A stretch of DNA of 64,000 nucleotides from a virus. Taxonomy: Duplodnaviria > Caudoviricetes. This document shows positions 1 to 61,160 of this stretch, one piece after another. The stretch spans positions 209 through 64,208 of IMG/VR virus record IMGVR_UViG_3300047160_035177; one strand, given 5' to 3'. A program made the position numbers and the translations under genes. The notes under the pieces were generated by a model, which ran no database searches, was not told the DNA's origin, and saw nothing but the letters and a program-made list of their open reading frames with translations. The number at the start of each line of letters is the position of its first letter. Position 1 is the first letter of the stretch.

Positions 1-204
1 CTCATCGGGCGTGTAGGCATCTACACCACTTGAAAAAACGTGTGCGAAGCCGCGTTCACCACCATCGCCGTCAGTGCCGTGTATCGTGGTGGAATAATCG
101 ATCCTAAGAACGCGCCCGAGACAAACAAATGCCTCGGGCCAAACGACACCGTTGATCTCGGGGCAATCGAGTAGCTTGCCGGGGATTTCATCTATGAGGC
201 GCAC
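1..204 (-). CDS. 5' part of a putative virion protein running off position 1 (MRLIDEIPGK...LGRVLRIDY...GFAHVFSSGVDAYTPDE)
   Basis: Own translation: GTG at 204 overlapping the upstream stop, 68 open codons ending exactly at base 1. Confidence 0.7.
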   Translation of the reverse strand, partial: MRLIDEIPGKLLDCPEINGVVWPEAFVCLGRVLRIDYSTTIHGTDGDGGERGFAHVFSSGVDAYTPDE

Positions 205-569
205 TTACAGCTATTCCAGGTTGTTCCCTGCGGACAACGAGGCGGGTAAGGCGGAGTTGTAGTTGGGGTGCAGCAACCACCGCCGCCCGGCGCAAAACTT
301 GTGTATCCGAACGGACAAACAGAAAAACCCGACTTTATTCCTGTTTCCGATGCTTCAGAAGCAACCGCGCGCCGCTGCACTGCAGATCTTGATGCTGGTT
401 TAGTTGTGCCTACGACGCACCGTTGACTGATGTAATCCCAATAGTAGCCGGGTGGGCAGCCGTGCCAAGTGTTGTAAGGGGTAAGCACAGCGCCTTGACC
501 GTATTCGGGCACGAAGCCCATTCCGTGGTCAACGTAGGAAACACCGCACTGATCAACCATTCGTCGCAT
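192..569 (-). CDS. Cys-rich putative virion protein with CPxG(Y/T) repeats
   Basis: GCPPGYYW, CPFGY, CPQGTTW; coupled to neighbours. Confidence 0.7.
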   Translation of the reverse strand: MRRMVDQCGVSYVDHGMGFVPEYGQGAVLTPYNTWHGCPPGYYWDYISQRCVVGTTKPASRSAVQRRAVASEASETGIKSGFSVCPFGYTSFAPGGGGCCTPTTTPPYPPRCPQGTTWNSCKCAS

Positions 570-1000
570 CAGATTTTCCTTCCCGCGGTAGTAAACGCGC
601 TTTTGAAAACGTAGTTGGAAACGATGCCGGCGATCACAGAAACGAGGATGTTGATCACCACGGCTTCGGAGAAAGTGAAATCGCCGAGACCGGACGGGCT
701 AGATGTTGCTCCAATTCCATCAACGGCAGGGGCGAAGAGCATTCCCAGACCTGGACGCGTACGCCCACGCGAGGCGGGGAGACTAGCCCTGACAACTTGG
801 CCCACGGCAACTTCGCTGAAACCTACAGGTTGGGCATCTTGGGGGAGCGGGCAGAGGGACATCCCGATATCGATCATCCCACCGACACCGGGCTGCGTCG
901 CAGGTTTGCAGAGTGTGGGATCGGCCATGAGCGGACGTTGCCGCCCATCTTGGTAGACGGCGAACTGACGCCGATTCCAATCCCACACTGAGTAATTCAT
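569..1000 (-). CDS. Tail-anchored membrane protein with GLG/GIG motifs
   Basis: PGLGM, DGIGA, SGLGD; C-terminal hydrophobic helix VVINILVSVIAGIV. Confidence 0.75.
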   Translation of the reverse strand: MNYSVWDWNRRQFAVYQDGRQRPLMADPTLCKPATQPGVGGMIDIGMSLCPLPQDAQPVGFSEVAVGQVVRASLPASRGRTRPGLGMLFAPAVDGIGATSSPSGLGDFTFSEAVVINILVSVIAGIVSNYVFKSAFTTAGRKI

Positions 1001-1227
1001 TCAAGATCCGAGAACGGCGGTAGCTCCGAGAAAGCCGCTCCTTGGGATTCTACCTGTTCGCGTGACAGCACAACAATCCGAACCTCGATCACCTGCCCAC
1101 AAGAATTCGTCGCCGCAACGTTGATGAACCGTGCACCACGGCCGAGCGCTTCAAGCTCGGCGCTCGTAAGTGCAACTTCAACGGGGCAAGCGTGATGGTT
1201 GTAGGCGGGCGCGGTCATTTTTGCCAA
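997..1227 (-). CDS. Hypothetical protein
   Basis: ORF coupled to downstream gene (ATGA overlap). Confidence 0.55.
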   Translation of the reverse strand: MAKMTAPAYNHHACPVEVALTSAELEALGRGARFINVAATNSCGQVIEVRIVVLSREQVESQGAAFSELPPFSDLE

Positions 1228-1313
1228 GGCGACGCGGAAGGCAGCGGACGTCCCAACTTTTGCTCTTCGAGAGCTTTCTGATCCGCTTCACGGCGGACCT
1301 TGTCGGTGAATGC

Positions 1314-1361
1314 TCAACCAAGACCAGTAGGAACAACGGGAACGGGAACGATGTGGATCAT
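1314..1361 (-). CDS. 15-codon mini-ORF MIHIVPVPVVPTGLG; frame stays open past the TGA to 1215
   Basis: ATG overlaps the stop of 1358..2578; ends exactly on a GLG motif. Confidence 0.3.
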   Translation of the reverse strand: MIHIVPVPVVPTGLG

Positions 1362-2578
1362 GATTTCCCCCGTGAAGCGACCGCGAGAAGCACGATACCA
1401 ACAACAATCCCGATAACGCCGAACGCGGTTGCGCTTGTGCTAGCTGTTTGCGGGCTGCTGGTCGTTGGAAGCGTAGTGAGCAACTTTGGATCAAATTCTT
1501 GCTGTGTGTCCATCCAGCGGGCACGCTCGGTGCCAGGAAGCGGCCACTGGCCGGTGCTCATCGCGATCTTCACCTGTGAAGGCGAGAGATTGATCCACTG
1601 GCCTTGGACCGCAGCGTTTATGAGGGCGTTGGTAGCCAAGCCCACCGCGAGAGAAGCGAGAAGATTCCCACCGGTGCCGAGCGTCCAAAGAGACGTCCAG
1701 GCGGTACCAACGGAAGCAGCGGGGCCCGCGTTGGGATTCACATAGACCTGCAGAACGGGGCCTTCAAGGCGCCGATCGACACTCGCTAGAATTCCCGTGG
1801 GACCAACCTGAGCCGCGGTCGCTGTTAGAACGTCGTACTTGTGGCCCCACTCTACAGCGGTCGACTGCGTTGGCTGGGATCCACAGATGATGCGATCTGT
1901 GAAAGGTCCAACGGCGCGGGTTTGATCTACGCCTCTGGTGCTAGACCAAGAAGACGAATCGGAGGCAAGCCACATCGCCGCCGTCTGCAGGATGGGAAGC
2001 GTCTTCTGATACTGCGCAGGCAGACGAGCGGTCCACGAAGCTACGATCCCTTGCGACTGTTGTAGCTCGGGCGATTCACACTTGGTGGATCCGTCAGGGT
2101 TGCGGAGCGTCAGCGTTCCCGTGGAGCTGCGCACGAAGCCCTGATCGATTGGGGTCGGTGTCTCAGTGCAAGCCGCGAAGGGAGCTTGAATCGATGGGTC
2201 GTTCGCACGAAGCTTGTGCGATTCGTCGATCATCGTGGCCCACGACTTCGACGGGTGGTAAACGCCGGGCTCGACCACTTCGGTAGCGGCAACGGTCGGC
2301 ACCGCGAAACCTTGGCTGTAGCCAGTCCAGATCGCTTGGCAGCGACCGAGCTTATCGACCACTGACTGCGGAGTCGGGAAGTAATCGATGTTGCTGTTCA
2401 GATCGGCAGCGAAAACAGTTCCGCCGTTGGGAAATGCAGCTGGTAGATCAGCTGCTGCCCATGTTCGGCACGGCTGCGAGCTGGACGAGAAGATCCCACC
2501 ACCGGAGACAACGCCGCAGTTGCCTACCTCACGGTAGCGCTTGTCGTCAGTCTGGCCAAGTGATCGAACGGATAGCAT
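1358..2578 (-). CDS. Large tail-anchored putative virion membrane protein
   Basis: N-terminus MLSVRSLGQ; C-terminal TM AFGVIGIVVGIVLLAV followed by basic residues. Confidence 0.8.
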   Translation of the reverse strand: MLSVRSLGQTDDKRYREVGNCGVVSGGGIFSSSSQPCRTWAAADLPAAFPNGGTVFAADLNSNIDYFPTPQSVVDKLGRCQAIWTGYSQGFAVPTVAATEVVEPGVYHPSKSWATMIDESHKLRANDPSIQAPFAACTETPTPIDQGFVRSSTGTLTLRNPDGSTKCESPELQQSQGIVASWTARLPAQYQKTLPILQTAAMWLASDSSSWSSTRGVDQTRAVGPFTDRIICGSQPTQSTAVEWGHKYDVLTATAAQVGPTGILASVDRRLEGPVLQVYVNPNAGPAASVGTAWTSLWTLGTGGNLLASLAVGLATNALINAAVQGQWINLSPSQVKIAMSTGQWPLPGTERARWMDTQQEFDPKLLTTLPTTSSPQTASTSATAFGVIGIVVGIVLLAVASRGKS

Positions 2579-2579
2579 T

Positions 2580-2894
2580 TCACTTTTGAAGTTTGCGAAG
2601 CATGCTTTTGAAAGCGTCTATTTGCATGTTCAACTCGTCTTCGTCGTCTTCGCTTTTGGCTTTATCTAACTGCTTTTCCGCACCTTCGATCGCGTCTTCC
2701 ACTTCTGATTCAAGGCCGTCTTTGAGATCGTCGAACCATTCCGCATCGGTCATGTCGCTATGTGGACGACGTGAACCCAACGCGAGCGCGCCGGTCGAGC
2801 AGACAGCGTAGAGCATGGTGCTTTGGCCACCGTGCCACGCACAAGCGGCTTCGACTTCATCGCCATCAAATTCGATTTCATACTTTGGCATCAA
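2580..2894 (-). CDS. Acidic hypothetical protein
   Basis: Intact ORF in operon. Confidence 0.65.
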   Translation of the reverse strand: MMPKYEIEFDGDEVEAACAWHGGQSTMLYAVCSTGALALGSRRPHSDMTDAEWFDDLKDGLESEVEDAIEGAEKQLDKAKSEDDEDELNMQIDAFKSMLRKLQK

Positions 2895-3058
2895 TTTTTC
2901 CTCGATCGAGATGCGATAACGGCAACGATGCCGATCAGAGCTGCGGCGATTCCAACCTTGGTGATCGTTGGTAGCGTCGAAGCAGTGGAAGTCGAAGAAG
3001 CTTGGGGTGCTTCCTTAACTTCGGTAACTGTGGCGGCACCGAGTGGGATCTTGAGCAT
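2891..3058 (-). CDS. Small tail-anchored membrane protein (MLKIPLGA...)
   Basis: Start reassigned to the ATG in a TAATG overlap at 3058; PLGA motif; C-terminal TM plus SRSRKN. Confidence 0.7.
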   Translation of the reverse strand: MLKIPLGAATVTEVKEAPQASSTSTASTLPTITKVGIAAALIGIVAVIASRSRKN

Positions 3059-3531
3059 TAGCGTTTCAGCAATAGGAGTAGAAGAACCGCGCCACCACCG
3101 AGAAGCAGTAAGGTTTGAGGCGTGATCGAGCTTGGAACTTGGTAGCCCGGGTAACCTGGATACATGCCAGGATAACCGGGAACATTCGGGAGAACCCCAG
3201 CGCCGAAGCTGGCAAGGATGCCGCAAGCACCGCCCGAGTAGCTTTCCCAAGAAGGACCGAGACGGAGAGCTAGAATCCGTCGCGTCTCATCGTTCCAAGT
3301 ACCGGTGACGGAAGCGGCCGTGAGTTGTCCTTGACCCTGAAGGTAAAACTGGATCGCGCGGATGCAGTAATCGCTCGACATCTCTGCCGCGGTCTTCTTG
3401 TCGCAGCGCTGGCAGCCCGAACCTGAAGGATCGAGAGTGATCTTGTAGTCGGTTGGATTCGGGCAGACGAGGGGCGCAGGGTAGTACCCAGTCGGGCAAT
3501 TCGGCGATGCCTGTCCAAGTGCAGAGCGCAT
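3058..3531 (-). CDS. Cys-rich tail-anchored protein with a possible peptidoglycan-binding-like motif
   Basis: MRSALGQ; AIQFYLQGQGQ...VTGTWNDETRRIL resembles a PG-binding helix pair; C-terminal TM. Confidence 0.7.
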   Translation of the reverse strand: MRSALGQASPNCPTGYYPAPLVCPNPTDYKITLDPSGSGCQRCDKKTAAEMSSDYCIRAIQFYLQGQGQLTAASVTGTWNDETRRILALRLGPSWESYSGGACGILASFGAGVLPNVPGYPGMYPGYPGYQVPSSITPQTLLLLGGGAVLLLLLLKR

Positions 3532-4589
3532 TAGCCGGCAGATTTCTTCATGATACCTAGAGCAAGAAGAAGGACCGCAGCGCCGATCGCGATCTTGACA
3601 CCGGTAGAGAAACCTACGTTGGCTTGGCTGGTATCAACTGGCGTTCCGGGCGCGGGCGCGGGCGTTGTTGCGGTTGGCGTAGGCGCCAACGTGGTGGGAA
3701 CGCTTGGGACTACGCAGCACGTGTACTGACCGCGGGCCTCGAGCGTGTACGGTGGTCCGCACGGAATCGGATTCTCGCCGGGTAGGAAGCAATTAGCCCC
3801 ACGAACGCACTTCACGCAGCGGGTGCGAGGATCGACCGCGAGATACTCGCCCGCAGGGCAAGTTGACGGCCCTTGATCGGGAGTTGACCAACCAGGTGCG
3901 CAAAGCGGATTGCAGATCTCGCAACCAGATCCGCTAGGATCTGCAGACCAACCGTAGCCAGGAATACAGGTAATGTGGCTACCGGTGGGTGGTTGCTGAT
4001 AACCCGGCGAACACGGGATCGGTGCAGGAGGGGGAGACGTTGGCGCAGGTAACGTAACTACCGTGGGTGTGAGAGTCACCGCTGGTGCTGGCGTCTTTTC
4101 GACAAGATCCGTCCAGACCATACCGGGTGAGTAAACGCCTGGTGAAACTAGAACTAGACCGCCGTCAGGGGTTGCAACGAGAAGTCCAGCCGATCGCAAA
4201 TCTTGATTTTGGCAGTTACAAGTTCTACCGGCCACGAAACCGCTGTTTGGGGTACAACCGGGTGGATCAAAGAGCGCCGGAGTCTTTGTTCCGCCTCCGA
4301 TGTACCAACCAACCGACGAACTACCTCCAACTTCAGTAACCGGAACTTGGGTGCCGCGGAACAGCGAGTCGATCTGATCAAAAGTCAGATTCGTGTCGCT
4401 GCCATAACGGCCACGTGCTATTTGGTTCTGTGTAGCGCCAACGGGATTGTAATTGCAGTTCCCACCAGGAACGATGCTGTATCGAGATCCCCCAGCCTGA
4501 ACACCTTTGGGCTGGTACTGTTGCTTCGCCTGCCCGAGCCCACGATTTAGGTACGCGAGAATGCTGTCTCGCATAGTTGGTTGAAACAT
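3531..4589 (-). CDS. Cys/Pro/Thr-rich tail-anchored virion protein
   Basis: RGLGQ; CxPGY and CxxC repeats; PT-rich stalk; C-terminal TM. Confidence 0.8.
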   Translation of the reverse strand: MFQPTMRDSILAYLNRGLGQAKQQYQPKGVQAGGSRYSIVPGGNCNYNPVGATQNQIARGRYGSDTNLTFDQIDSLFRGTQVPVTEVGGSSSVGWYIGGGTKTPALFDPPGCTPNSGFVAGRTCNCQNQDLRSAGLLVATPDGGLVLVSPGVYSPGMVWTDLVEKTPAPAVTLTPTVVTLPAPTSPPPAPIPCSPGYQQPPTGSHITCIPGYGWSADPSGSGCEICNPLCAPGWSTPDQGPSTCPAGEYLAVDPRTRCVKCVRGANCFLPGENPIPCGPPYTLEARGQYTCCVVPSVPTTLAPTPTATTPAPAPGTPVDTSQANVGFSTGVKIAIGAAVLLLALGIMKKSAG

Positions 4590-5545
4590 TACTTTTTCCC
4601 CAAGAAGTAGATGAGGCCTAGAACGACCGCGGCGCCGATACCAACCTTAGCGCCGGTCGAGAGATTCGACGTCAACGTTGAAGGTGGCGTGATCGTCGCG
4701 GGCCCCGGCGTTGGCGCTGCCGTTGGCGTTGGTGCCAAAGTCGTAGGCGTCGCGCCCGGCGTTGTAGTAACAGACGGCGGCGCTGCTTGGCCCGGTGGGA
4801 TGGGCGCGCACACAACGCAGTCGGGATACTGTGGGTGATGCACCGACTGCCAACCTTGCTGACACGTCTGCGGGCCATGCACGTACGGACGTGGGCAACC
4901 GCCGATCGCGCAGCCAACGCAGCCCGTGTCTTCCTGCACCGTGAATGTGTAGCCAGGCGGGCAACCACCGAACACCCAGCCCATCGGCGGCTTCGCATAG
5001 CCAGACGGGCAGGGCTGCGCGTTGTCGCGTAGGCACGTGTTGCAGCCGTCTGGCGACAAAATCACTTTCGGGTGATCGGCCGTGCACTGTTGCTGCCAAG
5101 TGAATGGCGGCATGCAGATGGGCGGTGGGTTGCCTGGTCCAAAGCCTGCGGGCGGCATGTTTCCCCCTGGAGGCGGAGCGCCCGGTGCGGGTGCTCCTGG
5201 TGCGCCTCCGCCCGGTGGTCTTTGTATCGGTGGATTTTCGCTGATGTTGCCGGTCGGGCATTTATAGCAATTGGGATTCGATGGATCGGCTTGGATAGCT
5301 ACATCGCAGTAAGACGTTCCGCCGAAATCGTGCCAATACGACTTTGAGAAGTAGGCGCCTTGGCAGGTAGCCGTTACACACGTGTAGCAAGTATCGTCTG
5401 CCCACTTTGGTTGCTGACCGGGAGGGCAAATGTAGGTATTCGGCTGCTTGCCCGAATTGGGATAGTCAGGCGGGCAGGATGCACCAAGACCCGCTAGCGC
5501 ACGCGCGACGTCTGATCGAATCGTTGACTGCGCTCGCTGCCTCAT
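4589..5545 (-). CDS. Cys/Pro/Thr-rich tail-anchored virion protein, likely paralog of 3531..4589
   Basis: Start set at ATGA overlap 5545; AGLGASC; CPxGY repeats; shared TTLAPTPT and STG(A/V)K(V/I)(G/A)IGAAV anchor. Confidence 0.8.
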   Translation of the reverse strand: MRQRAQSTIRSDVARALAGLGASCPPDYPNSGKQPNTYICPPGQQPKWADDTCYTCVTATCQGAYFSKSYWHDFGGTSYCDVAIQADPSNPNCYKCPTGNISENPPIQRPPGGGAPGAPAPGAPPPGGNMPPAGFGPGNPPPICMPPFTWQQQCTADHPKVILSPDGCNTCLRDNAQPCPSGYAKPPMGWVFGGCPPGYTFTVQEDTGCVGCAIGGCPRPYVHGPQTCQQGWQSVHHPQYPDCVVCAPIPPGQAAPPSVTTTPGATPTTLAPTPTAAPTPGPATITPPSTLTSNLSTGAKVGIGAAVVLGLIYFLGKK

Positions 5546-6024
5546 GACATCTCCAACGTGGGTTGAACCGGCCGCGTCCGCCGCAAGATGAGCCAAACGA
5601 GCGTAGCACCAGCGATGAGACCACCTGTGATGATGAGCGGTTTGTATTGCTCCGTGAACGGAACTGCAGAAGGTGGGAGAGGCGAAAGCGACGGACCTAC
5701 AGACTGACCCTGCATCTGCTCGAACTGTGTTCGCCAGTCAGCAAGTTTCGATCGGTATTCAAGCGTCTTCTCGTACGTCCCGTAAAAGAGGCGGGCAGTC
5801 CAATCTTGGTGGTCGCTGTAAAACTGCTTCCACTCCTGCCTCCAACGAGTCCACGCGTTGACCCACAGCGTGTTGGTTCCGGCTCCGGTGAACTGTTGAG
5901 TAATACGGATCGCAAGCTCATCTACAGCCTTGTCGACCGCGTTCATCTCATCAAGCATCTGCCCGGGCGTGACAACGATCGCGCCGAGCCCGGATGCGTA
6001 CTGTGCGGAAGCAACGCGCAGCAT
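5542..6024 (-). CDS. Helical, Trp-rich tail-anchored membrane protein
   Basis: MLRVASAQYASGLGA; WTRWRQEWKQF; C-terminal TM. Confidence 0.75.
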   Translation of the reverse strand: MLRVASAQYASGLGAIVVTPGQMLDEMNAVDKAVDELAIRITQQFTGAGTNTLWVNAWTRWRQEWKQFYSDHQDWTARLFYGTYEKTLEYRSKLADWRTQFEQMQGQSVGPSLSPLPPSAVPFTEQYKPLIITGGLIAGATLVWLILRRTRPVQPTLEMS

Positions 6025-6027
6025 CGA

Positions 6028-6486
6028 TCAATCCTGGTGATCGGCGCATTCGCCGGTTTCGCAAGCCTCGCAAGCTTCGGATGCTTCGTAGGCGTCTTCT
6101 TCTGCTTCCTCCGCGTCGTTCGCTTCGGGGTGGTCTTCTAGATAGCGCTTTACCTCGGCCATGAGGCGGGAACGGGAGCGCCGGGCTCGACGCTCACGAA
6201 GCGCAGTCTTACGTCCGTCTTTCGTTTTGGGCGAGACGTAGCGTTTCCAGAACCAGTAACCGCCAGCGAGAAGAGCGGCCGCCAACGCGAGCTTGGTCCA
6301 AGAAGATGACGATCCCTGCGTTGGAGGCGGAGATGGTTGAGGCTGCTGTTGCCCCAACGGGGAAAGTTGTGGGAGCTGGTTCGGAATCGCGATCAGACCT
6401 TGCGGCGTCTGCACCGCGGTGTAGCCGAGAGGCTGGCCTTGTGGGCCAAGAAGTTGGCCGTCAGGCCCGATCAAAATCTGATTCAC
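6028..6486 (-). CDS. Single-pass membrane protein with basic then acidic C-terminal tail
   Basis: PLGY and PLGQ; TM LALAAALLAGGYWFW; RERRARRSRSR then E/D-rich end. Confidence 0.7.
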   Translation of the reverse strand: MNQILIGPDGQLLGPQGQPLGYTAVQTPQGLIAIPNQLPQLSPLGQQQPQPSPPPTQGSSSSWTKLALAAALLAGGYWFWKRYVSPKTKDGRKTALRERRARRSRSRLMAEVKRYLEDHPEANDAEEAEEDAYEASEACEACETGECADHQD

Positions 6487-6489
6487 GGA

Positions 6490-6927
6490 TCACTCCTCTT
6501 CATCGGGCGGAGGCGACGCTTTGGGCGCTGAGGGTGCTGCTGCTTTCGGCCGTGAAAGCACGATCGCGAGCGTGACAGCACCAAGCGCGACCGCGCCGAT
6601 CACCCAAGGATTCTGGTACCAAGCTTGCGCCGGCGCCGGAATGTTCGGCGGCATCGTTGACGGCATGTTCTTGCAGATGCAGTCAGCGATCAGTTGTGGG
6701 CCACCAACGGCCGCGATCGTTGCGTACCAGGGAGCTTGCGCGGGCGTCCCTGGTGCAACGCTCGGCGTCAACGCCTGCACGATCGCAGCGCTCGCTGCAG
6801 CGCGAACTGCAGGGTTGCACCCGACCTTGGACACGACATCCTTAAGGACCGGGATGTACTGCGTCGGGATGATCGAGCAGTAGTCGAACTGCCCTAGCGC
6901 TGTAGTCGGGCGGAGCATCCGACTCAA
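6490..6927 (-). CDS. Tail-anchored membrane protein
   Basis: MLRPTTALGQ (ATG at 6918 may be the true start); TM WVIGAVALGAVTLAIVL. Confidence 0.75.
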   Translation of the reverse strand: MSRMLRPTTALGQFDYCSIIPTQYIPVLKDVVSKVGCNPAVRAAASAAIVQALTPSVAPGTPAQAPWYATIAAVGGPQLIADCICKNMPSTMPPNIPAPAQAWYQNPWVIGAVALGAVTLAIVLSRPKAAAPSAPKASPPPDEEE

Positions 6928-6964
6928 GACGCTAACACGTGCGCGGCGTTACAAGCAATTCGAG

Positions 6965-7255
6965 CTAGAGCGCGCCCGCCTTTTTTACCTTGAAAGTGCG
7001 ATCATCCGCGGCGCGTTTCTTCTCGGTTGCCCACGATCCGTTGGCAACGATCGGCGAGAAGGGAAGATTACCGACCCAGTTTTGCTCACGTTCGCGACAC
7101 TCTTTGTCGTCGCAAACGGTAGATGATCGGTACGCGTTGTGAATTCGTTTCTGCGCGTGCTTGCCGCAACGTGAGCAACGCGCGAAAGAGCTAGCGGGCA
7201 CCTCTCGTACGTTGCCGTAGCGCGTAGGCGGATTCTTTTTATGTTCAACTCTCAT
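6965..7255 (-). CDS. Small Zn-finger-like protein
   Basis: Start at ATGA overlap; CSRC...CDDKEC. Confidence 0.55.
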   Translation of the reverse strand: MRVEHKKNPPTRYGNVREVPASSFARCSRCGKHAQKRIHNAYRSSTVCDDKECREREQNWVGNLPFSPIVANGSWATEKKRAADDRTFKVKKAGAL

Positions 7256-7872
7256 CGTCGCCCCATGGGAATAGCAGCGGGTTGCCAACCGGCAACGGAC
7301 GGTCGGCGCACAGGCTCGATCGGCCATGCTTGGTAACGCGCGATCGAGTGAATCATTTCGGTCGTGTTCGGGCCGGGAACGGGATCCAGCACGATACGCC
7401 GGCCATCGCCAACTTTGACCACAGTAAAAACATGATGGAAGCCTCGTGACGCATCGGTCGTTATCGTCACGAATTCAGCGGTGTTACCGATAGCCATGAC
7501 CATCGCGGCCAAGGTGGTCGCCATCTCTTCGCAATCGACTTGACGCCCGCGCCGGCCGTCAGCGCGATCCCATGTCTCGGGTTGGAGCACCAAGTAGGGA
7601 TGTTGGGTGTATTCGGTGTGCAGCGGGTCTCGCACGTATCGAACGTTTTTTAGAACGTAGTAGTAGATCGCCGCGATCTCGGAAAGGTAGTCCTTGGCCT
7701 CGACCTGGGCGATGATCGATTCAACGAGGCGACGCAGCTCCGGAGATTGTTCTCGCGTGAGCGCGTCACGCACGAGACGACGCATGTCATCGATCGTGTA
7801 CGGAACGCCGTCGTACTCACGGGACTCGTAGCGTTTCCCCGCGGCGTACTGCGTGTGACCGAGACTCAACAC
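7252..7872 (-). CDS. Transglutaminase-like cysteine protease (putative virion maturation protease)
   Basis: VRYVRDP, DCEE (catalytic Cys), FHHVF (His), VLDP (Asp): papain-like transglutaminase core triad; own N-terminus MLSLGH. Confidence 0.8.
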   Translation of the reverse strand: MLSLGHTQYAAGKRYESREYDGVPYTIDDMRRLVRDALTREQSPELRRLVESIIAQVEAKDYLSEIAAIYYYVLKNVRYVRDPLHTEYTQHPYLVLQPETWDRADGRRGRQVDCEEMATTLAAMVMAIGNTAEFVTITTDASRGFHHVFTVVKVGDGRRIVLDPVPGPNTTEMIHSIARYQAWPIEPVRRPSVAGWQPAAIPMGRR

Positions 7873-8042
7873 GGAAGAATTCTAGCATTTCGACGTCGCC
7901 AGCGTTTCCGCGCCCACGCGCCAGCAAAGAAAAGCGCGCAGATGAAGAGCGCAAGCAGCGCGACCTTCATTGGTGCGGACAAAGAACAGTAGCACCATCG
8001 GCAAACGCAACCTATGCCGGTACCGTTGCAGTTACAGCGCAT
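7866..8042 (-). CDS. Small Cys-rich membrane protein (MRCNCNGTGIGCVCRWCYC...)
   Basis: TGATG-coupled start; GIG motif; TM then RKRWRRR. Confidence 0.6.
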   Translation of the reverse strand: MRCNCNGTGIGCVCRWCYCSLSAPMKVALLALFICALFFAGAWARKRWRRRNARILPC

Positions 8043-8449
8043 CAACCCACAACGATCGTGTAACTCCAAGTGATCGTCTGCGCGCACTTCGTGCCCTGAT
8101 CGATCATTACCGTGACCGTCATCGTTCCTTGCTGCGGAACTTGGGGTGGCGACGCGTCGAATTCGACGTAAGTTCCGCCGCCCGCAACAGTAAAGCTGCC
8201 GGGAATGTTGAAAGGGGCTCCGATCACTGGCACGAAGTGCATCACGTAGGAAGCAACGACGACTGGCTGATTGAATGTGATGTCGGACTCGTTCGGATCG
8301 ATGGCCATCGCACCGGGTAGAGGATTCCGATCCACTATGACCGCTAAGGTACAGGGGCCTTTAACCGTTGTCCTCTTCGCGCAGTTGCGGCAGGCTTGCG
8401 AAGGAACTGCGCCGCCGGCCGTACGAGCTTGTCCCGTGTTCCTAGGCAT
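8042..8449 (-). CDS. Beta-rich (Ig-like?) hypothetical protein
   Basis: Alternating hydrophobic strands; in structural operon. Confidence 0.55.
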   Translation of the reverse strand: MPRNTGQARTAGGAVPSQACRNCAKRTTVKGPCTLAVIVDRNPLPGAMAIDPNESDITFNQPVVVASYVMHFVPVIGAPFNIPGSFTVAGGGTYVEFDASPPQVPQQGTMTVTVMIDQGTKCAQTITWSYTIVVG

Positions 8450-8738
8450 GGATGCACCATCGGAGCGCGAAAGCTCCTAGACCGAGAAGTGGTTGTGTAC
8501 CGTCGGGAGTAACTACCTCACCGCAGGCTTTGCGAATCAGCTTCCCCCACTTGTCCTGTTGCTGGGCCGCAGCGATGACGCGGTCACGAACGGAAGCGCC
8601 ATCGAACATGAGCATTTCGTAGGCGGCCATCGCGTAGGAAGCGTGCACGAGCCCGTAGGCGGGAGACGTATCTTGCTGGGCCGCCATGAGGTAGCGGTCC
8701 GCTTGGCGTATGACGGCAGCGCGCTCGCGATCGGTCAC
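8442..8738 (-). CDS. Protein resembling a conserved uncharacterised Nucleocytoviricota family
   Basis: RQADRYLMAAQQDTSPAYGLVHASYA matches the RQxxRYxxAxQQDxSPxxxxxHAxYA pattern I recall from prasinovirus and mimivirus proteins; not searched. Confidence 0.6.
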   Translation of the reverse strand: MTDRERAAVIRQADRYLMAAQQDTSPAYGLVHASYAMAAYEMLMFDGASVRDRVIAAAQQQDKWGKLIRKACGEVVTPDGTQPLLGLGAFALRWCIHA

Positions 8739-8748: not shown

Positions 8749-8913
8749 CTACGCTGCTTCGTCTTCTAGCGGCAACTCAGGTTCCGACTCATCTTCAGGT
8801 GTGGGCTCTACGGATTCGTTTTCTTGTTTTCCGAACGTTCGATCCCAGCCGTCACGGAAGGCTTGCGAGCCGCCAAGAGCGACAGAGAACGGCGTTGACT
8901 GAAGATACTTCAC
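8749..8913 (-). CDS. 54-aa acidic protein missing from the ORF track (MKYLQSTPF...FRDGWDRTFGK...)
   Basis: Own translation; GTGA overlap with upstream gene; fills the gap exactly. Confidence 0.65.
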   Translation of the reverse strand: MKYLQSTPFSVALGGSQAFRDGWDRTFGKQENESVEPTPEDESEPELPLEDEAA

Positions 8914-10964
8914 GCTTGGATTATCTGCTGCTTAAGCTCGATGAACAACTCACGCAACCACGCTTCGCCTCGTGGGGTGAGAAGAACCGAATCAGGTTCG
9001 TTCGGCCGTTGTGCACAAACCTGCCGGACGATCTCTTGGAACGCGTCCACACCCGCGTTGACGATGTCCTGAAGGTAGAGACGCGGAACCTCCGCAACTA
9101 CTTCTTTCGCGATCTCCACTGCGGGTCGACCGCTCTCGGAAGCTTCCTCGAGGCGCTTCACCGCAACGCCAAGCGCACCGATTTCACTTTCTGTTAGCTG
9201 CGTAGGCTGCACGACTTCGGGCTTCAAGGGCTCTGCAGGTGCAGGCGCGGGCGCGGAAGGCGTTGCTACCGGTGCCGGCGCGGGTGTAGGCGCGGGTGGA
9301 TACATCGGGTAGGGCTGCGGGAATGCGGGCGCTACCTGAATCGGAAAAGCGCCGGGAGGCATCATGTAAGACATCGGCATCATCGGAGCAGCAACCGGTG
9401 CGGCCGGTGCTGTCTGCCGTTGGCCGATCGCGGTCGCTACACGCTCAAACACGCCTTTCGCGGCATCAACGACGCCCGCATCCTTCATGTCTTTAGCGAG
9501 CTGACCGATCTCGGTGCGCATCTCGCCTCCACCCTTTTCGTCGTTGCCGACGCCGGGCATGCGCATCCCGAACTGACTGGCGATACCGACAACGCTTCCG
9601 ATGGTGTCCGAAACAGATTTCAGCGCATCGGGCTTCGAGGTTCGAGCTTCGACCAAGTTGCGCTGCAACTCCTCTTTCTGTTTTTCGATGTCGTGGATGC
9701 GTTGCTCCAGCATCTGAATTCGATTTTCCTGACCCTTGATCTGCTCGCGAAAGATTCCTTCCTGCTTATCTAGCTCGGTCTTCTTCGCGAGATCGTACAT
9801 TTCCTTGAGACGCTCTGTAGCGCGCCGCTCATCGCTGTTCTGATCAGATAGACGCTTGACGTCGGACTGCCACTGACTGCGGATCGATTCGATGTCGCGT
9901 TGATGTAGCTCGTCGCGGTGCTTCTGCCGCTCACTGAAGGAATCCTCGCGTTCCTTCAGCTTCTCTTGGGACGCCTCGAGCTTCTCAACAAGCTTCTCAG
10001 CTTGTTCCTTGTGCTCACGTAGAAGCTGTTTTCGCTCTTCTTCCCACCGTTCGCGATCGTGGCGCTTGTCTTGTTCCCAACGCTCACGGGCTTGATCAAG
10101 CTCGCGCCGTGCGTCGCCTTGCATCTTGGCGACCGTTTCGGCGGATGGGTTACCGTGCGCAAGCTGGATTGCCTCGATCTGTTTCAGAAGAATGTCTGTC
10201 TTTGAATCATTGGCTTCCTTGAGAACCTTCAACATCTCCCCGAATTCACGACCGTGCGGGCCGCCATCGCGTAGATCCTGGATTACCTTCAACAACATTT
10301 CGTTGTTGAGCTTCATTACCTCCGCATCGGGCGAGATGACCCCACCCACTCCTTTAATTTTATCTTTGGAAACGCCACGAAGCATCGGAGGCGCGTTGAT
10401 GGGTACTTGCCCGAACATCTTCAACGGTCGGACTTTTCCAGATTGGGCGTGGTAGCCCATGAACTTCAGTTGATACATATATCCGCCGTTCTCCTGCTCG
10501 ATTTCGGACAGGAGATCATCGGCGTTACGTACGGCCATGATCGACCATTGGCCTGAAAAACCGGACGACGGCTTACCTTCTATGAAGGTAGGCGATACAC
10601 GCCAAGCAGTTACATACGACTGCGGATCTGATTTCAGCTTATCGATCCATTCATCGATAAGTTTCGTCAGCCCCGTTTCTTCTGCAGATAGAGCCGGTGG
10701 GATTCCAGTTGTACGATTCGTAACGTCTTCGCGAAGCGCCCCGAAAATCGGGGGCCTTTTCCGTTCTGGTTTTTCTTCTTCCTCGTTGACGACGGCATCG
10801 TTGACGCTTTCTTGCTCGCCGTTCTCGTCTAGCAGTCCTGCTTGCCGCGCCTGCGCTTGAACTTCAGCGAGATCGATATCGATTTTGCGCGGACGTCCAC
10901 GACGACGTGGAAATACCGGCTCGGGTGCAGGAAGCGCTACATCATCTTGGACTTCGTCATTCAT
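8910..10964 (-). CDS. Large coiled-coil protein with N-terminal AT-hook-like motif
   Basis: PRRRGRPRK; long E/K/R/Q heptad region; Pro-rich linker. Confidence 0.75.
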   Translation of the reverse strand: MNDEVQDDVALPAPEPVFPRRRGRPRKIDIDLAEVQAQARQAGLLDENGEQESVNDAVVNEEEEKPERKRPPIFGALREDVTNRTTGIPPALSAEETGLTKLIDEWIDKLKSDPQSYVTAWRVSPTFIEGKPSSGFSGQWSIMAVRNADDLLSEIEQENGGYMYQLKFMGYHAQSGKVRPLKMFGQVPINAPPMLRGVSKDKIKGVGGVISPDAEVMKLNNEMLLKVIQDLRDGGPHGREFGEMLKVLKEANDSKTDILLKQIEAIQLAHGNPSAETVAKMQGDARRELDQARERWEQDKRHDRERWEEERKQLLREHKEQAEKLVEKLEASQEKLKEREDSFSERQKHRDELHQRDIESIRSQWQSDVKRLSDQNSDERRATERLKEMYDLAKKTELDKQEGIFREQIKGQENRIQMLEQRIHDIEKQKEELQRNLVEARTSKPDALKSVSDTIGSVVGIASQFGMRMPGVGNDEKGGGEMRTEIGQLAKDMKDAGVVDAAKGVFERVATAIGQRQTAPAAPVAAPMMPMSYMMPPGAFPIQVAPAFPQPYPMYPPAPTPAPAPVATPSAPAPAPAEPLKPEVVQPTQLTESEIGALGVAVKRLEEASESGRPAVEIAKEVVAEVPRLYLQDIVNAGVDAFQEIVRQVCAQRPNEPDSVLLTPRGEAWLRELFIELKQQIIQA

Positions 10965-17795: not shown

Positions 17796-18605
17796 ATGCG
17801 CGAAATCAAAATCGTTCCGGGTGGAGCGCCCGCGAGAGTCCATGGGTTGGTAGCGGGACTATCAGGAAGCGGAAAGACGAGCTTTGCTGCTTCCGCACCC
17901 AAGCCCTTGTTCATCTCTGACGTCAACGAAGGCGGTTACAACACCCTCTTCGCGATGGATCCCGCGATCTGGTGGGATTCCAAGGTAGCGCCGGAAGTTC
18001 ATGCCATCGAGAAGTACACGGACATGTCCGAGGAGATCTCGAAGCTCGAGCAGATGGCCGCGAAGAAAACGTTTCCGTGGCAGACGCTCGTGATCGATCC
18101 CTTGTCCGTCTACGTCGATCGATTCCTGGGTGAATTGATGGCCCAGGATCTATACAAGGACAGCCGGAAGTACTACGGCGATCTTGCCTCCCACATCCAG
18201 GCGCTCGTCCGACGTGTGCATGCGCTTCCCTGCCACGTTCTATGGCTCTGCCACGTGAAGCACGATGGAAGCGAAGTGAACGGCCCTCACATCGGCGGTC
18301 AGATGGCTGAGAAGTTTCCCGCCTACTGCGATTTCAAGTGGCTTACCAACGTCGTAACTCAGCCTAACGCTCCACCAGTCTACGAGCTTCGAACGTTGCC
18401 TTACCGCACGTGGACTTTTCTAGGTGGCCGATGGCCCCTCTACGATCCGATGATTCCCAGCTTCAAGTGCATCTCGCAGCTTTTGGGCCTTGGCTCGCCG
18501 GTATCGCCTTCGGTTCCTGGATTCCCGAATGGCGTCACATACCCACCACGATCGGCTAATGCGCCAACGAATGGCGTTAATCAGCAACAAACAACAAACC
18601 CGTAG
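17796..18605 (+). CDS. AAA_24/Sak4-like recombination ATPase
   Basis: GLSGSGKTS Walker A; LVIDPLS Walker B; sits between nuclease and SSB genes. Confidence 0.8.
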   Translation: MREIKIVPGGAPARVHGLVAGLSGSGKTSFAASAPKPLFISDVNEGGYNTLFAMDPAIWWDSKVAPEVHAIEKYTDMSEEISKLEQMAAKKTFPWQTLVIDPLSVYVDRFLGELMAQDLYKDSRKYYGDLASHIQALVRRVHALPCHVLWLCHVKHDGSEVNGPHIGGQMAEKFPAYCDFKWLTNVVTQPNAPPVYELRTLPYRTWTFLGGRWPLYDPMIPSFKCISQLLGLGSPVSPSVPGFPNGVTYPPRSANAPTNGVNQQQTTNP

Positions 18606-19220: not shown

Positions 19221-19320
19221 CGCTCCTGGTGCTCGAGTAAAGCCTCGGTGGCTCGTGTTTACTTGAGCATTTCCTTCCCGTGTGGCCCCGAACGGGCGGA
19301 GCTTCGGGGCATTTAAAATC

Positions 19321-20823
19321 ATGATTCAACGCGATGAAAATGGGCAGGTAGTGCACAGCCGCGGACCTGGCGATTCTCCCAGTTGTGAGGGTTGCCCATG
19401 TTCCCGCGACGGCAAGCCTGGCAAGCCTGTGCGCGCATGGGGTGCCAAGGGCGGTCTAGCGATCGTCGCCGAAGGCCCCGGTAGTGAAGAGTTGATCCAG
19501 GGCTACCCACTCGTGGGTCCCACGGGTCGGCTGCTCAACGATGTTCTGCGTAAGGGAAAGATCGACCGACAACAGTGTTGGATCACCAACGCGCTTCTGT
19601 GCGCTCGTCCATCGATCGATCAGGACATGTTCCGAGCGATTGAACACTGCCGACCGCGGCTCGAAGCTGAGTTACAAACCGCGGCTCCTTCAGCGGTTCT
19701 CGCTCTTGGTGGAACGGCGGCTAAAAGCTTGAAGCTCCCGGTAACGGCGATTTCCGAAGCCCGGGGCACCGTCCAGTATTCTCCGTTCCTGCCTAACGTT
19801 CCCGTTATTACCTCACTACATCCTGCATCGCTCTTCAAAGGTGGCGCAGGTGAAGTAAAAGGCGGTGGGAAAAACAAGCAGAACGTCGACGCGCAAATGA
19901 TGTTTCTTCAGGCCGATGTCGAAAAGGCGGGAGGCGTTGCCTCCGGCGCAATTCCTGCTCAGTGGTCCGACGACATCAAGGTCATAACGTCCATCGAGGA
20001 AACCGCCGCCGAAGTTAAGGCAATCATCGAAGAAGCCCGTGCATGGTGCGCACTCGGTATCGATCTCGAGTGGAACAAAGATCGGATGATCACGTTTCTA
20101 GGCCTTGGCCACGGCGGCCGATCGATTTCGATTCCGTGGTTCCTCATGTCCGAAGAAGCGCTAAACGCTGCCGAAACGGCAATGGTCGATCCGACTCTGC
20201 CCAAGATCATCCACAATCTACAAGCGGACAAAGAGATTTGGGAACTATGCATAGGTCCCATGAATGGGAAGCTCATTGACACGATGTTGCTTCACCACGT
20301 TGGTTTTCCAGGACTCGCTCACGACTTGCAGCAGGTAGCTACTCAGTTTCTCGTCATCCCACCGTGGAAGACAGCTCACCGAGAAGAGCGGAAGAGCGTC
20401 GACAAGGCCTTGAAGCTCCGTGACCGCGAAGCAAAAAAGCTCGCCAAAAAGATGGATCGCATGAAAGCCCACGACGAACGTAACGCGCAGAAGAAGGCGG
20501 AAGCCGAAGAGCGCAAGGCTCAACGCGTAGCCGAACACGAAGCGCGCAACGCAGCCTCCGCGGCCGCAGGCCAAAAGCGCCGTGGCCGGCCGCCCAAGGT
20601 GCGTCCATCGCTAGACGCACCGCCGCCCACCCCCGTTGCCGTGGTGCCTCCAGAACCGCCTGCCGTTGCGCCCGCGGCTGAGATTCCCGTGGAGCCAACG
20701 CCAACGCCTCCTGTTCCTGACAGCCCCTTCGCAGCGCTGGCAGGAGCCCTCAAGAAGAAGCCCACCAAACGTCAACTCAACATCGTTGTTGTGGATGACG
20801 ACGGAAGCGAGCGGCCGGGATGA
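19321..20823 (+). CDS. polA: Split DNA polymerase A, N-terminal chain: family-4 uracil-DNA glycosylase-like domain plus 3'-5' exonuclease motifs I and II
   Basis: CEGCPC, AEGPGSEE, LVGPTG, TNALLC, HPASL; IDLEW (ExoI), HNLQAD (ExoII); charged and Pro-rich tail. Confidence 0.8.
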   Translation: MIQRDENGQVVHSRGPGDSPSCEGCPCSRDGKPGKPVRAWGAKGGLAIVAEGPGSEELIQGYPLVGPTGRLLNDVLRKGKIDRQQCWITNALLCARPSIDQDMFRAIEHCRPRLEAELQTAAPSAVLALGGTAAKSLKLPVTAISEARGTVQYSPFLPNVPVITSLHPASLFKGGAGEVKGGGKNKQNVDAQMMFLQADVEKAGGVASGAIPAQWSDDIKVITSIEETAAEVKAIIEEARAWCALGIDLEWNKDRMITFLGLGHGGRSISIPWFLMSEEALNAAETAMVDPTLPKIIHNLQADKEIWELCIGPMNGKLIDTMLLHHVGFPGLAHDLQQVATQFLVIPPWKTAHREERKSVDKALKLRDREAKKLAKKMDRMKAHDERNAQKKAEAEERKAQRVAEHEARNAASAAAGQKRRGRPPKVRPSLDAPPPTPVAVVPPEPPAVAPAAEIPVEPTPTPPVPDSPFAALAGALKKKPTKRQLNIVVVDDDGSERPG

Positions 20824-21635
20824 AAGCTCGGCCGTTTCTGAAGTGGGCGGGCGGCAAGAAACAGCTTCTACCTGAGTTGTTGAAGCGCGTTCAGATGAAG
20901 TCATATAGGACCTACTACGAACCGTTCTTAGGTGGTGGTGCTCTCTTCTTCGCGCTCGCGCCGAATCGAGCCGTGATCTGTGATGCGAATCTGCGTTTGA
21001 TTCAAACGTACAAAGCGGTGCGTGACTCGGTTGATCAAGTGATCGATATTCTTCGTTGGCATCAAGATCAGCATTCCGAAGAGCATTTCAAAGCAATGCG
21101 AAATATCGATGTAGATAACAAAGATAAGATCGCATGCGCCGGCTGGATGATTTATCTCAACAAGACCGGCTACAACGGTCTATATCGCGTCAACTCCAAG
21201 GGTCATTTCAATGTGCCCTTCGGCCGATACGCGAACCCCAAGATTCTGGATGAAGAGAACTTGCGTGCTTGCTCGGAGCTTCTCGGCCGCGCTGCGATTC
21301 GATGCCAAGATTTCCGAGAGAGCTTAGAGAATCCTATCGGCGGCGACTTCGTCTATCTAGATCCGCCCTACGTTCCCATCTCGGAAACATCTTCGTTCAC
21401 GTCGTACACCGCAGAAAAGTTCACCCACGAAGATCAGAAGGATCTAGCGGCCTACGCCGCGGAGCTGAAATCCCGCGGTGTCTCGGTGCTCCTCTCTAAC
21501 TCCTCGGCACCGTCCGTGACTGAAGATCTCTATCCATCCTTCAAGATCGAGAAAGTTAAAGGCCGTCGATCTATCAACTCCAAAGCCTCGAAACGCGGTC
21601 CCATCGATGAGTATCTGATCTCCACGGAGACGTAA
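20820..21635 (+). CDS. dam: DNA adenine methyltransferase (Dam/D12 class)
   Basis: FLKWAGGK, YYEPFLGGGALFF, VYLDPPY. Confidence 0.92.
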   Translation: MKARPFLKWAGGKKQLLPELLKRVQMKSYRTYYEPFLGGGALFFALAPNRAVICDANLRLIQTYKAVRDSVDQVIDILRWHQDQHSEEHFKAMRNIDVDNKDKIACAGWMIYLNKTGYNGLYRVNSKGHFNVPFGRYANPKILDEENLRACSELLGRAAIRCQDFRESLENPIGGDFVYLDPPYVPISETSSFTSYTAEKFTHEDQKDLAAYAAELKSRGVSVLLSNSSAPSVTEDLYPSFKIEKVKGRRSINSKASKRGPIDEYLISTET

Positions 21636-36237: not shown

Positions 36238-36449
36238 ACGTCGTGGCGTGGATCTTGGGTCTGGCGCTTCTCGGCACGCTTATTGCTCTCGAGATTCGCG
36301 TCTCGCGCCGTCTACGCGCGAAGGAGCGCGCTATCCAGACTGAGATCGACAAGATCGCCGAAGTGATCGACGCGAGATTCCAGCGTCAGTATGGCCGCAA
36401 GAGCGCCACGCTCGCCCAGCATTTCCCGCGACTAGGAGCCGGGCAGTGA
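36234..36449 (+). CDS. Small N-anchored membrane protein
   Basis: N-terminal TM; coupled. Confidence 0.55.
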
Positions 36450-61085: not shown

Positions 61086-61160
61086 CGAAGTCTCCTCCTT
61101 GGAGGGCATCCCTTTCGGGCCTCTGAGCTTATATGCGGGCTCAGGATCCGCAAAACTGAA

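Follow-up and report, generated by a model that had tools for sequence, protein, structure and literature searches.

The question raised by this locus is why so many unrelated particle proteins of one virus carry a short leader ending in Leu-Gly, and whether a transglutaminase-fold enzyme encoded among them reads this signal. The window, by which we mean the whole 64-kb stretch of DNA analysed, represents an uncultured soil virus whose record is 64 kb long, whole and bounded by terminal repeats. Its particle module lies on the minus strand at 55.9-64 kb and 1-8.8 kb and comprises 28 of the window's 91 proteins. Family searches of the window detected neither a terminase nor an HK97-type capsid family. 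The first-pass annotation had suggested that the enzyme cleaves after Leu-Gly in about 20 virion proteins, or alternatively that the leader is a sorting signal. All the N-termini that it quoted are found on the minus strand, with the motif Gly at the residues listed below. The carriers with short leaders, and one protein with the motif next to its membrane helix, are the following:

569-1000, minus strand: protein with two GLG motifs immediately preceding its C-terminal membrane helix
1358-2578, minus strand: tail-anchored protein of 406 aa, leader ending SLGQ (G8)
2891-3058, minus strand: tail-anchored protein of 55 aa, leader ending PLGA (G7)
3058-3531, minus strand: tail-anchored protein, leader ending ALGQ (G6)
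3531-4589, minus strand: Cys-rich, tail-anchored protein, leader ending GLGQ (G19)
4589-5545, minus strand: Cys-rich, Pro/Thr-stalked, tail-anchored protein, leader ending GLGA (G21)
5542-6024, minus strand: tail-anchored protein, leader ending GLGA (G14)
6490-6918, minus strand: tail-anchored protein, leader ending ALGQ (G9)
56332-56547, minus strand: protein of 71 aa with a moderately hydrophobic C-terminus, leader ending SLGQ (G8)
58193-58540, minus strand: tail-anchored protein, leader ending QLGQ (G10)

Within the first 25 residues, LG[QA] occurs in nine of the 28 module proteins versus none of the other 63 (Fisher p 8.8e-6), in agreement with the earlier remark that replication-gene N-termini lack it. 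Composition-preserving shuffles gave 0.69 ± 0.79 such module proteins, and nine was reached in 0 of 3000. The broader pattern [GASPQ]LG[QAE], for which an enrichment check had been proposed, is present in 14 module proteins (18 sites) versus 2.4 ± 1.5 proteins expected, and outside the module in 2 proteins versus 5.2 expected. LGQ took rank 5 in an unbiased 3-mer scan of all N-termini, with collagen repeats ranking above it. The motif is real and lies far above chance, and these observations support its confinement to the particle module.

A motif of this kind could also be a by-product of composition, gene kinship or a nucleotide signal at translation starts. Indeed, Gly, Leu and Ala are abundant in the module proteins, and many of their starts are translationally coupled: six carrier starts immediately abut the upstream stop, five of them as TAATG, which supports the start codons of these six. 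However, the shuffles never attain the observed count, the codons used for L, G and Q/A vary from gene to gene among the carriers, which points to selection at the protein level, and the motif persists in orthologues with diverged leaders. In an all-against-all BLASTP of the module, moreover, a shared 19-residue leader was the only sign of paralogy. The by-product explanation is already contradicted by the shuffles, the codon variation and the absent paralogy, and we consider it very improbable.

Conservation in homologues, which the first-pass annotation had named as a check, was found. The few relatives preserve the LG, and the surrounding leaders have diverged in length and sequence so that [LM]G alone is kept. 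For instance, the leader of the L008 orthologue of 6490-6918 (42% identity) differs, is longer by six residues and ends PLGQ, and the L008 relatives of 3058-3531 and 3531-4589 have SLGW at G27 and GLGA at the leader end (G26), respectively. Orthologues that keep [LM]G alone as leader length and sequence change are as expected for a processing site. The residue after Gly had been given as Q, A or E, but W, F, H and S also occur in paralogues and relatives, and the motif core is therefore better written as [G/S/A]-[L/M]-G. GLG is also found inside folded or juxtamembrane regions in the window, and cutting at every GLG site would fragment proteins.

The carriers are mostly membrane proteins. A C-terminal membrane helix is present in eight of the nine LG[QA] carriers versus 4 of the 19 other module proteins (p 0.0012). 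Because eight of nine carriers are tail-anchored, the sorting-signal alternative gains weight. The Leu-Gly leader could be a retained addressing or docking tag, a common receptor gathering membrane proteins, capsid proteins and the enzyme at the assembling particle or viral membrane patch, with the enzyme as tagged cargo. We regard this as possible but somewhat doubtful. In addition to the tie with membrane anchors, docking is favored by the tagging of the enzyme itself and by a longer, conserved leader of 18 residues that looks more like a folded element for binding than like a simple site of cutting. Two window proteins have this leader type:

192-569, minus strand: Cys-rich protein, 18-residue leader ending HGMGF
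58932-59147, minus strand: small tail-anchored protein with a fixed 18-residue leader ending HGLGW

In 58932-59147 a second LGQ immediately precedes the membrane helix, and the leader and the two motifs are all retained in the L002 orthologue. Further leaders of the HG[LM]G type occur at L008 370, 772 and 9312 and at L005 1408. The simple leaders, however, have only two to three residues conserved between orthologues and vary in length from 5 to 27, which is little for a binding epitope, and no candidate receptor was identified.

The motif is not restricted to short leaders. Three further particle proteins carry it internally:

59159-60028, minus strand: capsid-protein candidate, leader of about 75 residues ending DGLGQ, followed by a conserved domain
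60033-61109, minus strand: capsid-protein candidate, leader of about 100 residues, helical and rich in Pro/Gln, ending ALGEPGLGS, followed by a beta-rich domain
62184-63740, minus strand: protamine-like protein in which nine E-R(4-8) blocks precede a membrane helix and a Cys/Trp/Pro unit that is duplicated and has GLG on its flanks

The internal DGLGQ and ALGEPGLGS noticed in the first pass are present, and in both capsid candidates the motif stands exactly at the border between variable leader and conserved domain. L74 and G75 of 59159-60028 are invariant in three homologues (lowest identity 34%), and the flanks are variable. The motif of 60033-61109 is preserved in an alignment with three homologues; the most distant of these has it as QLGE, at a shifted position immediately preceding the conserved block. 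The structure model of 60033-61109 is of low confidence (pLDDT 35.8) and no claim on the fold is drawn from it. That the motif of the capsid candidates lies at a domain boundary, 75-100 residues into the protein, speaks against a docking tag. The GLGE/LGE described earlier for the core protein 62184-63740 held for one junction only: five of the nine Arg blocks follow Gly (LG, MG, VG, AG and TG, one each), GLG-E is found once, the other eight blocks follow MG, VG, AG, TG, S or A, and most junctions are G-E or S-E. Cleavage of this protein into basic peptides is speculation. Altogether 13 N-terminal tags were counted (nine LG[QA], the enzyme, 59159-60028 if read from its ATG, and two HG[LM]G), in addition to a few internal or juxtamembrane sites, and the figure of about 20 proteins is consequently an upper bound.

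The enzyme and the gene that precedes it are:

7252-7872, minus strand: transglutaminase-fold Cys enzyme of 206 aa with its own N-terminal SLGH (G5), candidate leader peptidase
7866-8087, minus strand: small Cys-rich protein, single membrane helix, stop codon overlapping the enzyme gene start

The transglutaminase-type fold and C-H-D triad assigned to this ORF in the first pass are borne out by Pfam, the structure model and the homologues. The enzyme matches PF01841 over residues 58-164 (E 3.8e-5, 24.4 bits, cut-off 23); this was the sole family listed in a Pfam scan with E up to 0.1, in which the BTLCP/LapG family profile gave no match. In the AlphaFold model (pLDDT 88.6, residues 1-11 disordered), Cys114 begins the helix 114-127, a strand begins at 147, and D163 comes after the strand 159-162. 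C114, H147 and D163 are invariant or nearly so in 40 homologues and invariant in the seven closest. The structural matches of the model include 3kd4 (Z 12.0), transglutaminase 3 (Z 10.4), factor XIII (Z 10.0) and LapG (Z 9.7, rmsd 4.1 over 138 residues), and Foldseek gave a probability of 1.00 to 3isr, 3kd4 and LapG. Sequence and model together support a transglutaminase/papain-like fold for the enzyme, and its Cys-His-Asp triad is conserved. An identity with adenain-type clan CE proteases was considered and rejected, since the order is Cys-His-Asp and the fold is a transglutaminase core, not the Ulp1-like His-Glu/Asp-Cys arrangement. No signal peptide or hydrophobic signal segment was seen in the enzyme.

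The enzyme's own N-terminal LG tag was also as quoted earlier. A GTG/TTG start is needed for the enzyme because conservation begins at residue 16-20. The short-leader homologue P0010 starts with [S/A]LGH as the enzyme does, and the longer N-terminal extensions of the homologues P0006-P0008 contain LG motifs, which fits self-processing of the enzyme; the extension of P0005 is without any. A tag on the enzyme is equally expected if the enzyme is mere tagged cargo.

The enzyme has one cultured relative only: gp34 of Salisaeta phage SSIP-1 (BLASTP E 1.3e-18, 30% identity), which carries the annotation virion structural protein. A tblastn search of 50,697 phage records gave no other homologue (E 3e-13 for gp34), and the best viral structure match of the enzyme is I1ZBG7 (E 1.9e-10). 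The gp34 gene heads the SSIP-1 structural genes, and G[LM]G lies between residues 17 and 34 in four SSIP-1 late proteins. For SSIP-1 the motif count does not exceed chance significantly (9 versus 5.2 ± 2.3 expected; 42 of 500 shuffles reach 9). In BLASTP comparisons of the window proteins with the 57 SSIP-1 proteins (E up to 0.01), gp34 and the sigma-like ORF 2 were the only matches, so that a sigma-factor gene is common to both genomes; the packaging ATPase gp40 and the capsid proteins of SSIP-1 had no window counterpart by BLASTP, and profile or fold comparison might reveal them. In six distant viral contigs, whose enzyme homologue is only 30-36% identical, G[LM]G was counted 47 times in the 58 ORFs that lie downstream of the enzyme gene, a threefold excess over the expected 14.8 ± 4.0, and 11 times in the remaining 109 ORFs versus 15.0 expected. 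This enrichment is module-wide and not clearly at the N-termini (rate ratio 1.3-1.9), and a spread across the module proteins beyond the N-termini is again in favor of docking.

Judged from the model, the fold would be compatible alike with a protease and with a cross-linking transglutaminase, a PNGase-type amidase or a pseudomurein endoisopeptidase, all of which match it at Z 9-10 or in Foldseek. Pseudomurein endoisopeptidases are cell-wall peptidases of methanogen phages. The motif could be processed by a host protease or another viral one. The enzyme would then either serve entry as a cell-wall peptidase carried in the virion, or harden the particle by cross-linking or deamidation. By Foldseek and the structural aligner, PeiP/PeiW, PNGase, transglutaminases 2 and 3 and factor XIII match the model approximately as well as LapG does, and SSIP-1 gp34 is a particle component like the entry lysins of membrane phages. 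Gln, the acyl donor of transglutaminases, follows the motif Gly in 11 of 23 sites, but in the other 12 the residue is A, W, F or H, and therefore Gln chemistry is unlikely to be the common denominator. Moreover, the genome already has a GH25 lysozyme, and the motif enrichment tracks the enzyme gene across very distant contigs. Pfam and PHROGs scans, covering about 50 of the 91 ORFs, showed no other protease candidate in the particle module; the sole other peptidase-like gene, that of a RadC-type JAB protein, lies outside it. We consider this explanation unlikely.

The most likely reading, which we hold tentatively, is that the enzyme recognizes and cuts the Leu-Gly signal in particle proteins, forming a previously undescribed cut-and-assemble system. 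Particle proteins would be marked by a short linear motif, [G/S/A]-[L/M]-G with Q, A, W or F as the usual next residue, in three places: at the end of a 5-27 residue N-terminal leader in tail-anchored membrane proteins, at the end of a 75-100 residue scaffold-like leader in the two capsid candidates, and in the flexible N-terminus of the enzyme itself. During assembly or within the particle, the enzyme 7252-7872 would recognize this signal and cut at or beside Gly, thereby removing the leaders, which may beforehand bring the proteins to where assembly takes place. That cutting of the motif occurs, at which position and by this enzyme is what we infer. The proposed logic would be similar to that of the T4 capsid-targeting sequence and gp21, and of the adenovirus protease and its precursor proteins.

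In the T4 CTS/gp21 and phiKZ-type systems, short N-terminal leaders with a simple consensus end are found on many unrelated particle proteins; they load the protein into the particle and are then cut off, and the main capsid protein is likewise shortened at its N-terminus. The proteases of these tailed phages are serine enzymes of the herpesvirus-assemblin type that cut after Glu. The virus described here likewise has the same short leader type on unrelated particle proteins (nine LG[QA], two HG[LM]G and the enzyme), but differs in the cysteine/transglutaminase fold, the Leu-Gly site and the membrane-protein carriers, and in that a terminase and an HK97-type capsid were not found in the window. 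Adenain cuts at (M/I/L)XGG-X and (M/I/L)XGX-G, poxvirus I7 at AG-X and African swine fever virus pS273R at GG-X. These are virus-encoded Cys proteases of clan CE from viruses of eukaryotes, packaged in or acting on the particles, and their substrates include membrane-associated and DNA-condensing core proteins. The Gly-centered code with a nearby hydrophobic residue is alike, whereas the fold here is predicted to be a transglutaminase core and the hydrophobic residue immediately precedes Gly. LapG, of the bacterial transglutaminase-like cysteine proteinases (BTLCP), is a site-specific endoprotease that removes the N-terminal module of LapA at Ala108-Ala109 (PMC10990149). It shares the fold and the Cys-His-Asp triad with the enzyme, and its cut is site-specific, at a small-residue motif. 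However, LapG is periplasmic, calcium-dependent and c-di-GMP-regulated via LapD, with one adhesin substrate, whereas the enzyme is viral, has no signal peptide and would have at least a dozen substrates with a Leu-Gly site.

In a broader and rather improbable extension of the proposal, the virus would belong to an unrecognized lineage of tailless, membrane-containing soil viruses of bacteria in which an adenovirus-like maturation has evolved independently. A packaged transglutaminase-fold protease would then cut a Gly-centered code in approximately fifteen particle proteins, stripping the scaffold-like leaders from the capsid proteins, trimming the tail-anchored proteins and chopping a protamine-like precursor into Arg-rich, DNA-condensing peptides. 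Maturation by proteolysis at a readable code is known in tailed phages and in viruses of eukaryotes, adenovirus and poxviruses among them. To our knowledge, and as far as the searchable literature goes, there is no account of it in bacterial viruses that contain a membrane or with a transglutaminase-fold enzyme, and no description of a leader tag paired with such an enzyme was found in the literature searched. If the code is real, the particle proteome of an uncultured virus group, represented by contigs of 45-131 kb with no detectable terminase or HK97 capsid, would be readable from sequence, and the mature protein ends of these viruses would be predictable. The cultured phage SSIP-1 would provide a direct test bed. 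The approximately one thousand small transglutaminase-like proteins of the enzyme's family found in metagenomes would also obtain their first assigned function.

The particle module of this genome consists of 28 ORFs, all on the minus strand, forming a single tightly coupled block that extends from 55.9 kb to the end of the window and from 1 to 8.7 kb. Nine of the 28 module proteins carry the motif LG[QA] in their first 25 residues, compared to none of the 63 others (Fisher p 8.8e-6). When residues were shuffled within each protein, 0.69 +/- 0.79 module proteins with LG[QA] were expected and none of 3000 shuffles reached nine. The N-termini quoted in the first-pass annotation are all present, and the wider LG-containing pattern it had attributed to the virion proteins is indeed enriched in the module (14 proteins against 2.4 expected from shuffles; 2 against 5.2 expected outside the module). 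The module ORFs referred to by position are the following:

192-569, minus strand, protein with the fixed-length leader
1358-2578, minus strand, module protein used in the complex prediction
3058-3531, minus strand, module protein with an orthologue in contig L008
3531-4589, minus strand, module protein with an orthologue in contig L008
6490-6918, minus strand, module protein with an orthologue in contig L008
7252-7872, minus strand, transglutaminase-fold enzyme of 206 aa
58932-59147, minus strand, protein with the fixed-length leader
59159-60028, minus strand, capsid candidate with the motif after a leader of about 75 residues
60033-61109, minus strand, capsid candidate with the motif after a leader of about 100 residues
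62184-63740, minus strand, protamine-like core protein

The Leu, Gly and Gln/Ala codons of the motif vary from gene to gene, and the signal therefore resides in the protein and not in the DNA. The called start codons are supported in that six of them immediately abut the stop codon of the preceding gene (five TAATG and one TGAAATG). All-against-all BLASTP of the module revealed that the carriers are not paralogous, the sole match being one shared 19-residue leader. Taken together, the shuffles, the codon variation and the BLASTP comparison exclude, for practical purposes, chance, composition or paralogy as the origin of the motif. At 23 sites pooled from the window and its relatives, Leu/Met is preceded by Gly (12), Ser (5), Ala, Pro or Gln and the Gly is followed by Gln (11), Ala (5), Trp (4), Phe (2) or His (1), so that the core of the motif is [G/S/A]-[L/M]-G.

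Eight of the 9 carriers, compared to 4 of the 19 other module proteins, have one membrane helix at their C-terminal end with basic residues after it (p 0.0012). The tagged proteins are thus tail-anchored in the membrane and have no classical signal peptide. In addition, there is a second leader of fixed length, M-R-x3-D-x2-G-x3-V-[DN]-[HR]-G-[LM]-G-[WFAQ], placing the Gly at residue 18 or 19, which is present on 192-569, 58932-59147 and five proteins of related contigs. When ten module proteins were searched against NCBIfam, no known leader family or C-terminal sorting signal rose above noise. Both the link of the motif with membrane anchors and the structured 18-residue leader speak for the main rival explanation, namely that the motif leader is a docking tag which is left uncleaved. 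We consider this possible, if somewhat unlikely.

Relatives are very rare. Out of 5.8 billion proteins, only three are homologues of the capsid candidate 60033-61109. These retain the ALGEPGLG[SA] block with which the variable leader ends, except that the most distant one has QLGE instead, abutting the conserved domain. Similarly, Leu74-Gly75 of 59159-60028 is invariant down to 34% identity with differing flanks, and one homologue has three LG[QE] copies in this region. The 36-kb contig L008 displays partial synteny with the window and encodes an enzyme 55% identical. Here 6490-6918, 3531-4589 and 3058-3531 have orthologues whose leaders differ in length and sequence and end again with PLGQ, GLGA and SLGW, respectively, and further module ORFs have initial leaders ending with SLGQ and QLGQ. 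Homologue searches with 6490-6918 retrieved only itself and the L008 orthologue.

A more distant set comprised six IMG/VR contigs of 45-131 kb, in which the enzyme is only 30-36% identical. N-terminal enrichment of the motif was not clear in these contigs with their crude gene calls, and when the distant loci were pooled, LG-containing words did not stand out at N-termini in an unbiased k-mer test. Downstream of the enzyme gene, the 58 ORFs contain 47 G[LM]G against 14.8 +/- 4.0 expected, and the other 109 ORFs contain 11 against 15.0 expected. No match was obtained in IMG/VR with the enzyme sequence alone as the query.

The Transglut_core (Pfam) match of the enzyme lies just over the curated cut-off, and a full HMMER search gave 1075 relatives. 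Cys114, His147 and Asp163 are invariant or nearly so across the homologues. The AlphaFold model is confident (pLDDT 88.6), with Cys114 opening a helix and with the first 11 residues, including the SLGH tag, disordered. Among structural matches, the putative protease 3kd4 (Z 12.0) is followed by transglutaminase 3 and factor XIII (about 10), LapG (9.7), PNGase (9.6), and vasohibin and the CPR-C4 protease (8.8-8.9); pseudomurein endoisopeptidases are also among the Foldseek matches, and comparison to PDB sequences gave no match. The fold is thus certain to be of the transglutaminase type, whereas the chemistry is not certain. Conservation among the homologues starts at residue 16-20, which shows that the start at GTG/TTG and the N-terminal SLGH are real. 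The short homologue P0010 opens with ALGH, and P0006, P0007 and P0008, three of the homologues with extensions of 80-180 residues, have LG motifs in those extensions.

A protein of 680-850 aa is always encoded before the enzyme gene (window 8910-10964; L008 5451-7997; about 6.3-8.9 kb in the related contigs L015-L019). From its N-terminus onward it comprises a part rich in beta structure, a long coiled coil with many charges, a linker rich in Pro and a helical end; it has only a weak tape-measure match in PHROGs (E 3.5e-5), and may be a scaffold or length-determining protein. In the unrelated short metagenome contig L012, the enzyme-family protein P0012 (177 aa, 41% identical, 569-1102) is directly preceded by a protein with Gln/Gly repeats and a tail that is Lys-rich and histone-like (2-448), which may be another pairing of the enzyme with a DNA-condensing protein.

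The explanation we tentatively favor is leader cleavage, in which the transglutaminase-fold enzyme would cut the leaders of the particle proteins at the Leu-Gly motif. LapG, which has the same fold, takes off an N-terminal module at a site of small residues (PMC10990149), demonstrating that an enzyme of this fold can be a site-specific endoprotease. Complex prediction for the enzyme and the first 40 residues of 1358-2578 gave a score of 0.01, from which no verdict on binding was drawn. It is rather improbable that the enzyme is instead a tagged entry lysin or cross-linker with its tag processed by something else; 12 of the 23 sites have no Gln after the Gly, and Gln-directed transglutaminase chemistry thus cannot account for the motif overall. 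The only other peptidase-like gene found encodes a RadC-like JAB/MPN protein (HNHPSG motif, 52475-53173) and lies outside the particle module.

A search of 50,697 phage records gave a single match to the enzyme, gp34 of SSIP-1 (Salisaeta icosahedral phage 1), an icosahedral phage with an internal membrane and T=49 (PMC6356626, PMC6260650). This protein is annotated as structural and is encoded at the head of the SSIP-1 structural genes. Four SSIP-1 late proteins have G[LM]G at residues 17-34, an enrichment that is not significant. No further SSIP-1 particle protein is similar to the window proteins in BLASTP. A second gene common to both viruses encodes a sigma-70-type factor (window 28521-29156) similar to SSIP-1 ORF 2 (BLASTP E 6e-7). 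In the literature searched, no paper connected SSIP-1 or tailless phages with a transglutaminase-like enzyme.

For 59159-60028, the protein atlas gave unnamed viral clusters only and a weak lead (0.77) to PM2 capsid protein families. No informative cluster was found there for 60033-61109, and its structure model, built from four sequences, was unusable for a fold search (pLDDT 35.8). The core protein 62184-63740 has nine E-R(4-8) blocks, also written E-R(4-8)-S-R, then a membrane helix and two copies of a Cys/Trp/Pro-rich unit, which is unusual for a bacterial virus. Gly precedes five of the nine blocks, but Leu-Gly precedes only one. Cutting of this protein into protamine-like peptides, by analogy to adenovirus, would be attractive but is unsupported.

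The window covers bases 209-64208 of the 64,208-base IMG/VR record, which has direct terminal repeats, and therefore represents essentially the whole genome. Among its replication and maintenance genes are those for a family A DNA polymerase, SNF2 helicase, DUF3987 primase-helicase, PD-(D/E)XK nuclease, ParB, tyrosine integrase and a Sak4-like ATPase (17796-18605), the sole Walker A ATPase found in the window. The polymerase (19282-23206) is split over two ORFs, one with the UDG and 3'-5' exonuclease part and the other with the polymerase part, and a complete Dam-like methyltransferase ORF (20820-21635) is situated between them. Other identified genes encode a sigma factor, glycosyltransferases, GH25 lysozyme and collagen-like fibers with G-P-Q/G-P-R repeats (37548-38522, 38962-40425, 47504-48463 and also 36446-37528, which is tail-fiber-like in PHROGs through its repeats only). 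Three of the fiber proteins open with M-(x2)-I-C-C directly followed by the collagen repeats, and these two cysteines may knot a trimer or provide an anchor. The Cys-rich particle module has at its downstream end a thioredoxin gene (WCGPC, 55536-56161), which lies beside a His-rich small ORF, and a 311-aa protein (44113-45048) has 36 cysteines and an N-terminal membrane helix.

Apart from the Pfam match of the transglutaminase-like ORF, no scanned module protein matched a Pfam or PHROG family above threshold, and in PHROGs neither the enzyme nor any other module protein was assigned to a family. Scanning about 50 of the 91 ORFs with Pfam and PHROGs revealed no terminase, portal or HK97-type capsid gene, nor did the Terminase_6N and Phage_capsid profiles match this genome or four related viral records of 45-131 kb. 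Identical pieces of 151-235 bases from window positions 1358-8738 were present at low depth in three soil metagenomes, and no variants were seen among these few pieces. The virus is therefore probably rare in soil communities. No RNA sequencing runs with it were listed. Scans for related loci in bacterial and archaeal genomes and JGI metagenomes gave no match, and thus no host or provirus was identified.

The best reading of the Leu-Gly pattern is that of a short signal for processing or addressing, because it is minimal, position-restricted, conserved and found on unrelated particle proteins, because it sits at the boundaries of leaders and domains, and because an intact cysteine enzyme from the same block itself bears the motif. 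The logic of a leader and an enzyme is the one known from virion maturation and targeting by leader and protease, whereas the system of this genome differs from the known ones in the enzyme fold, the site and the substrate class.
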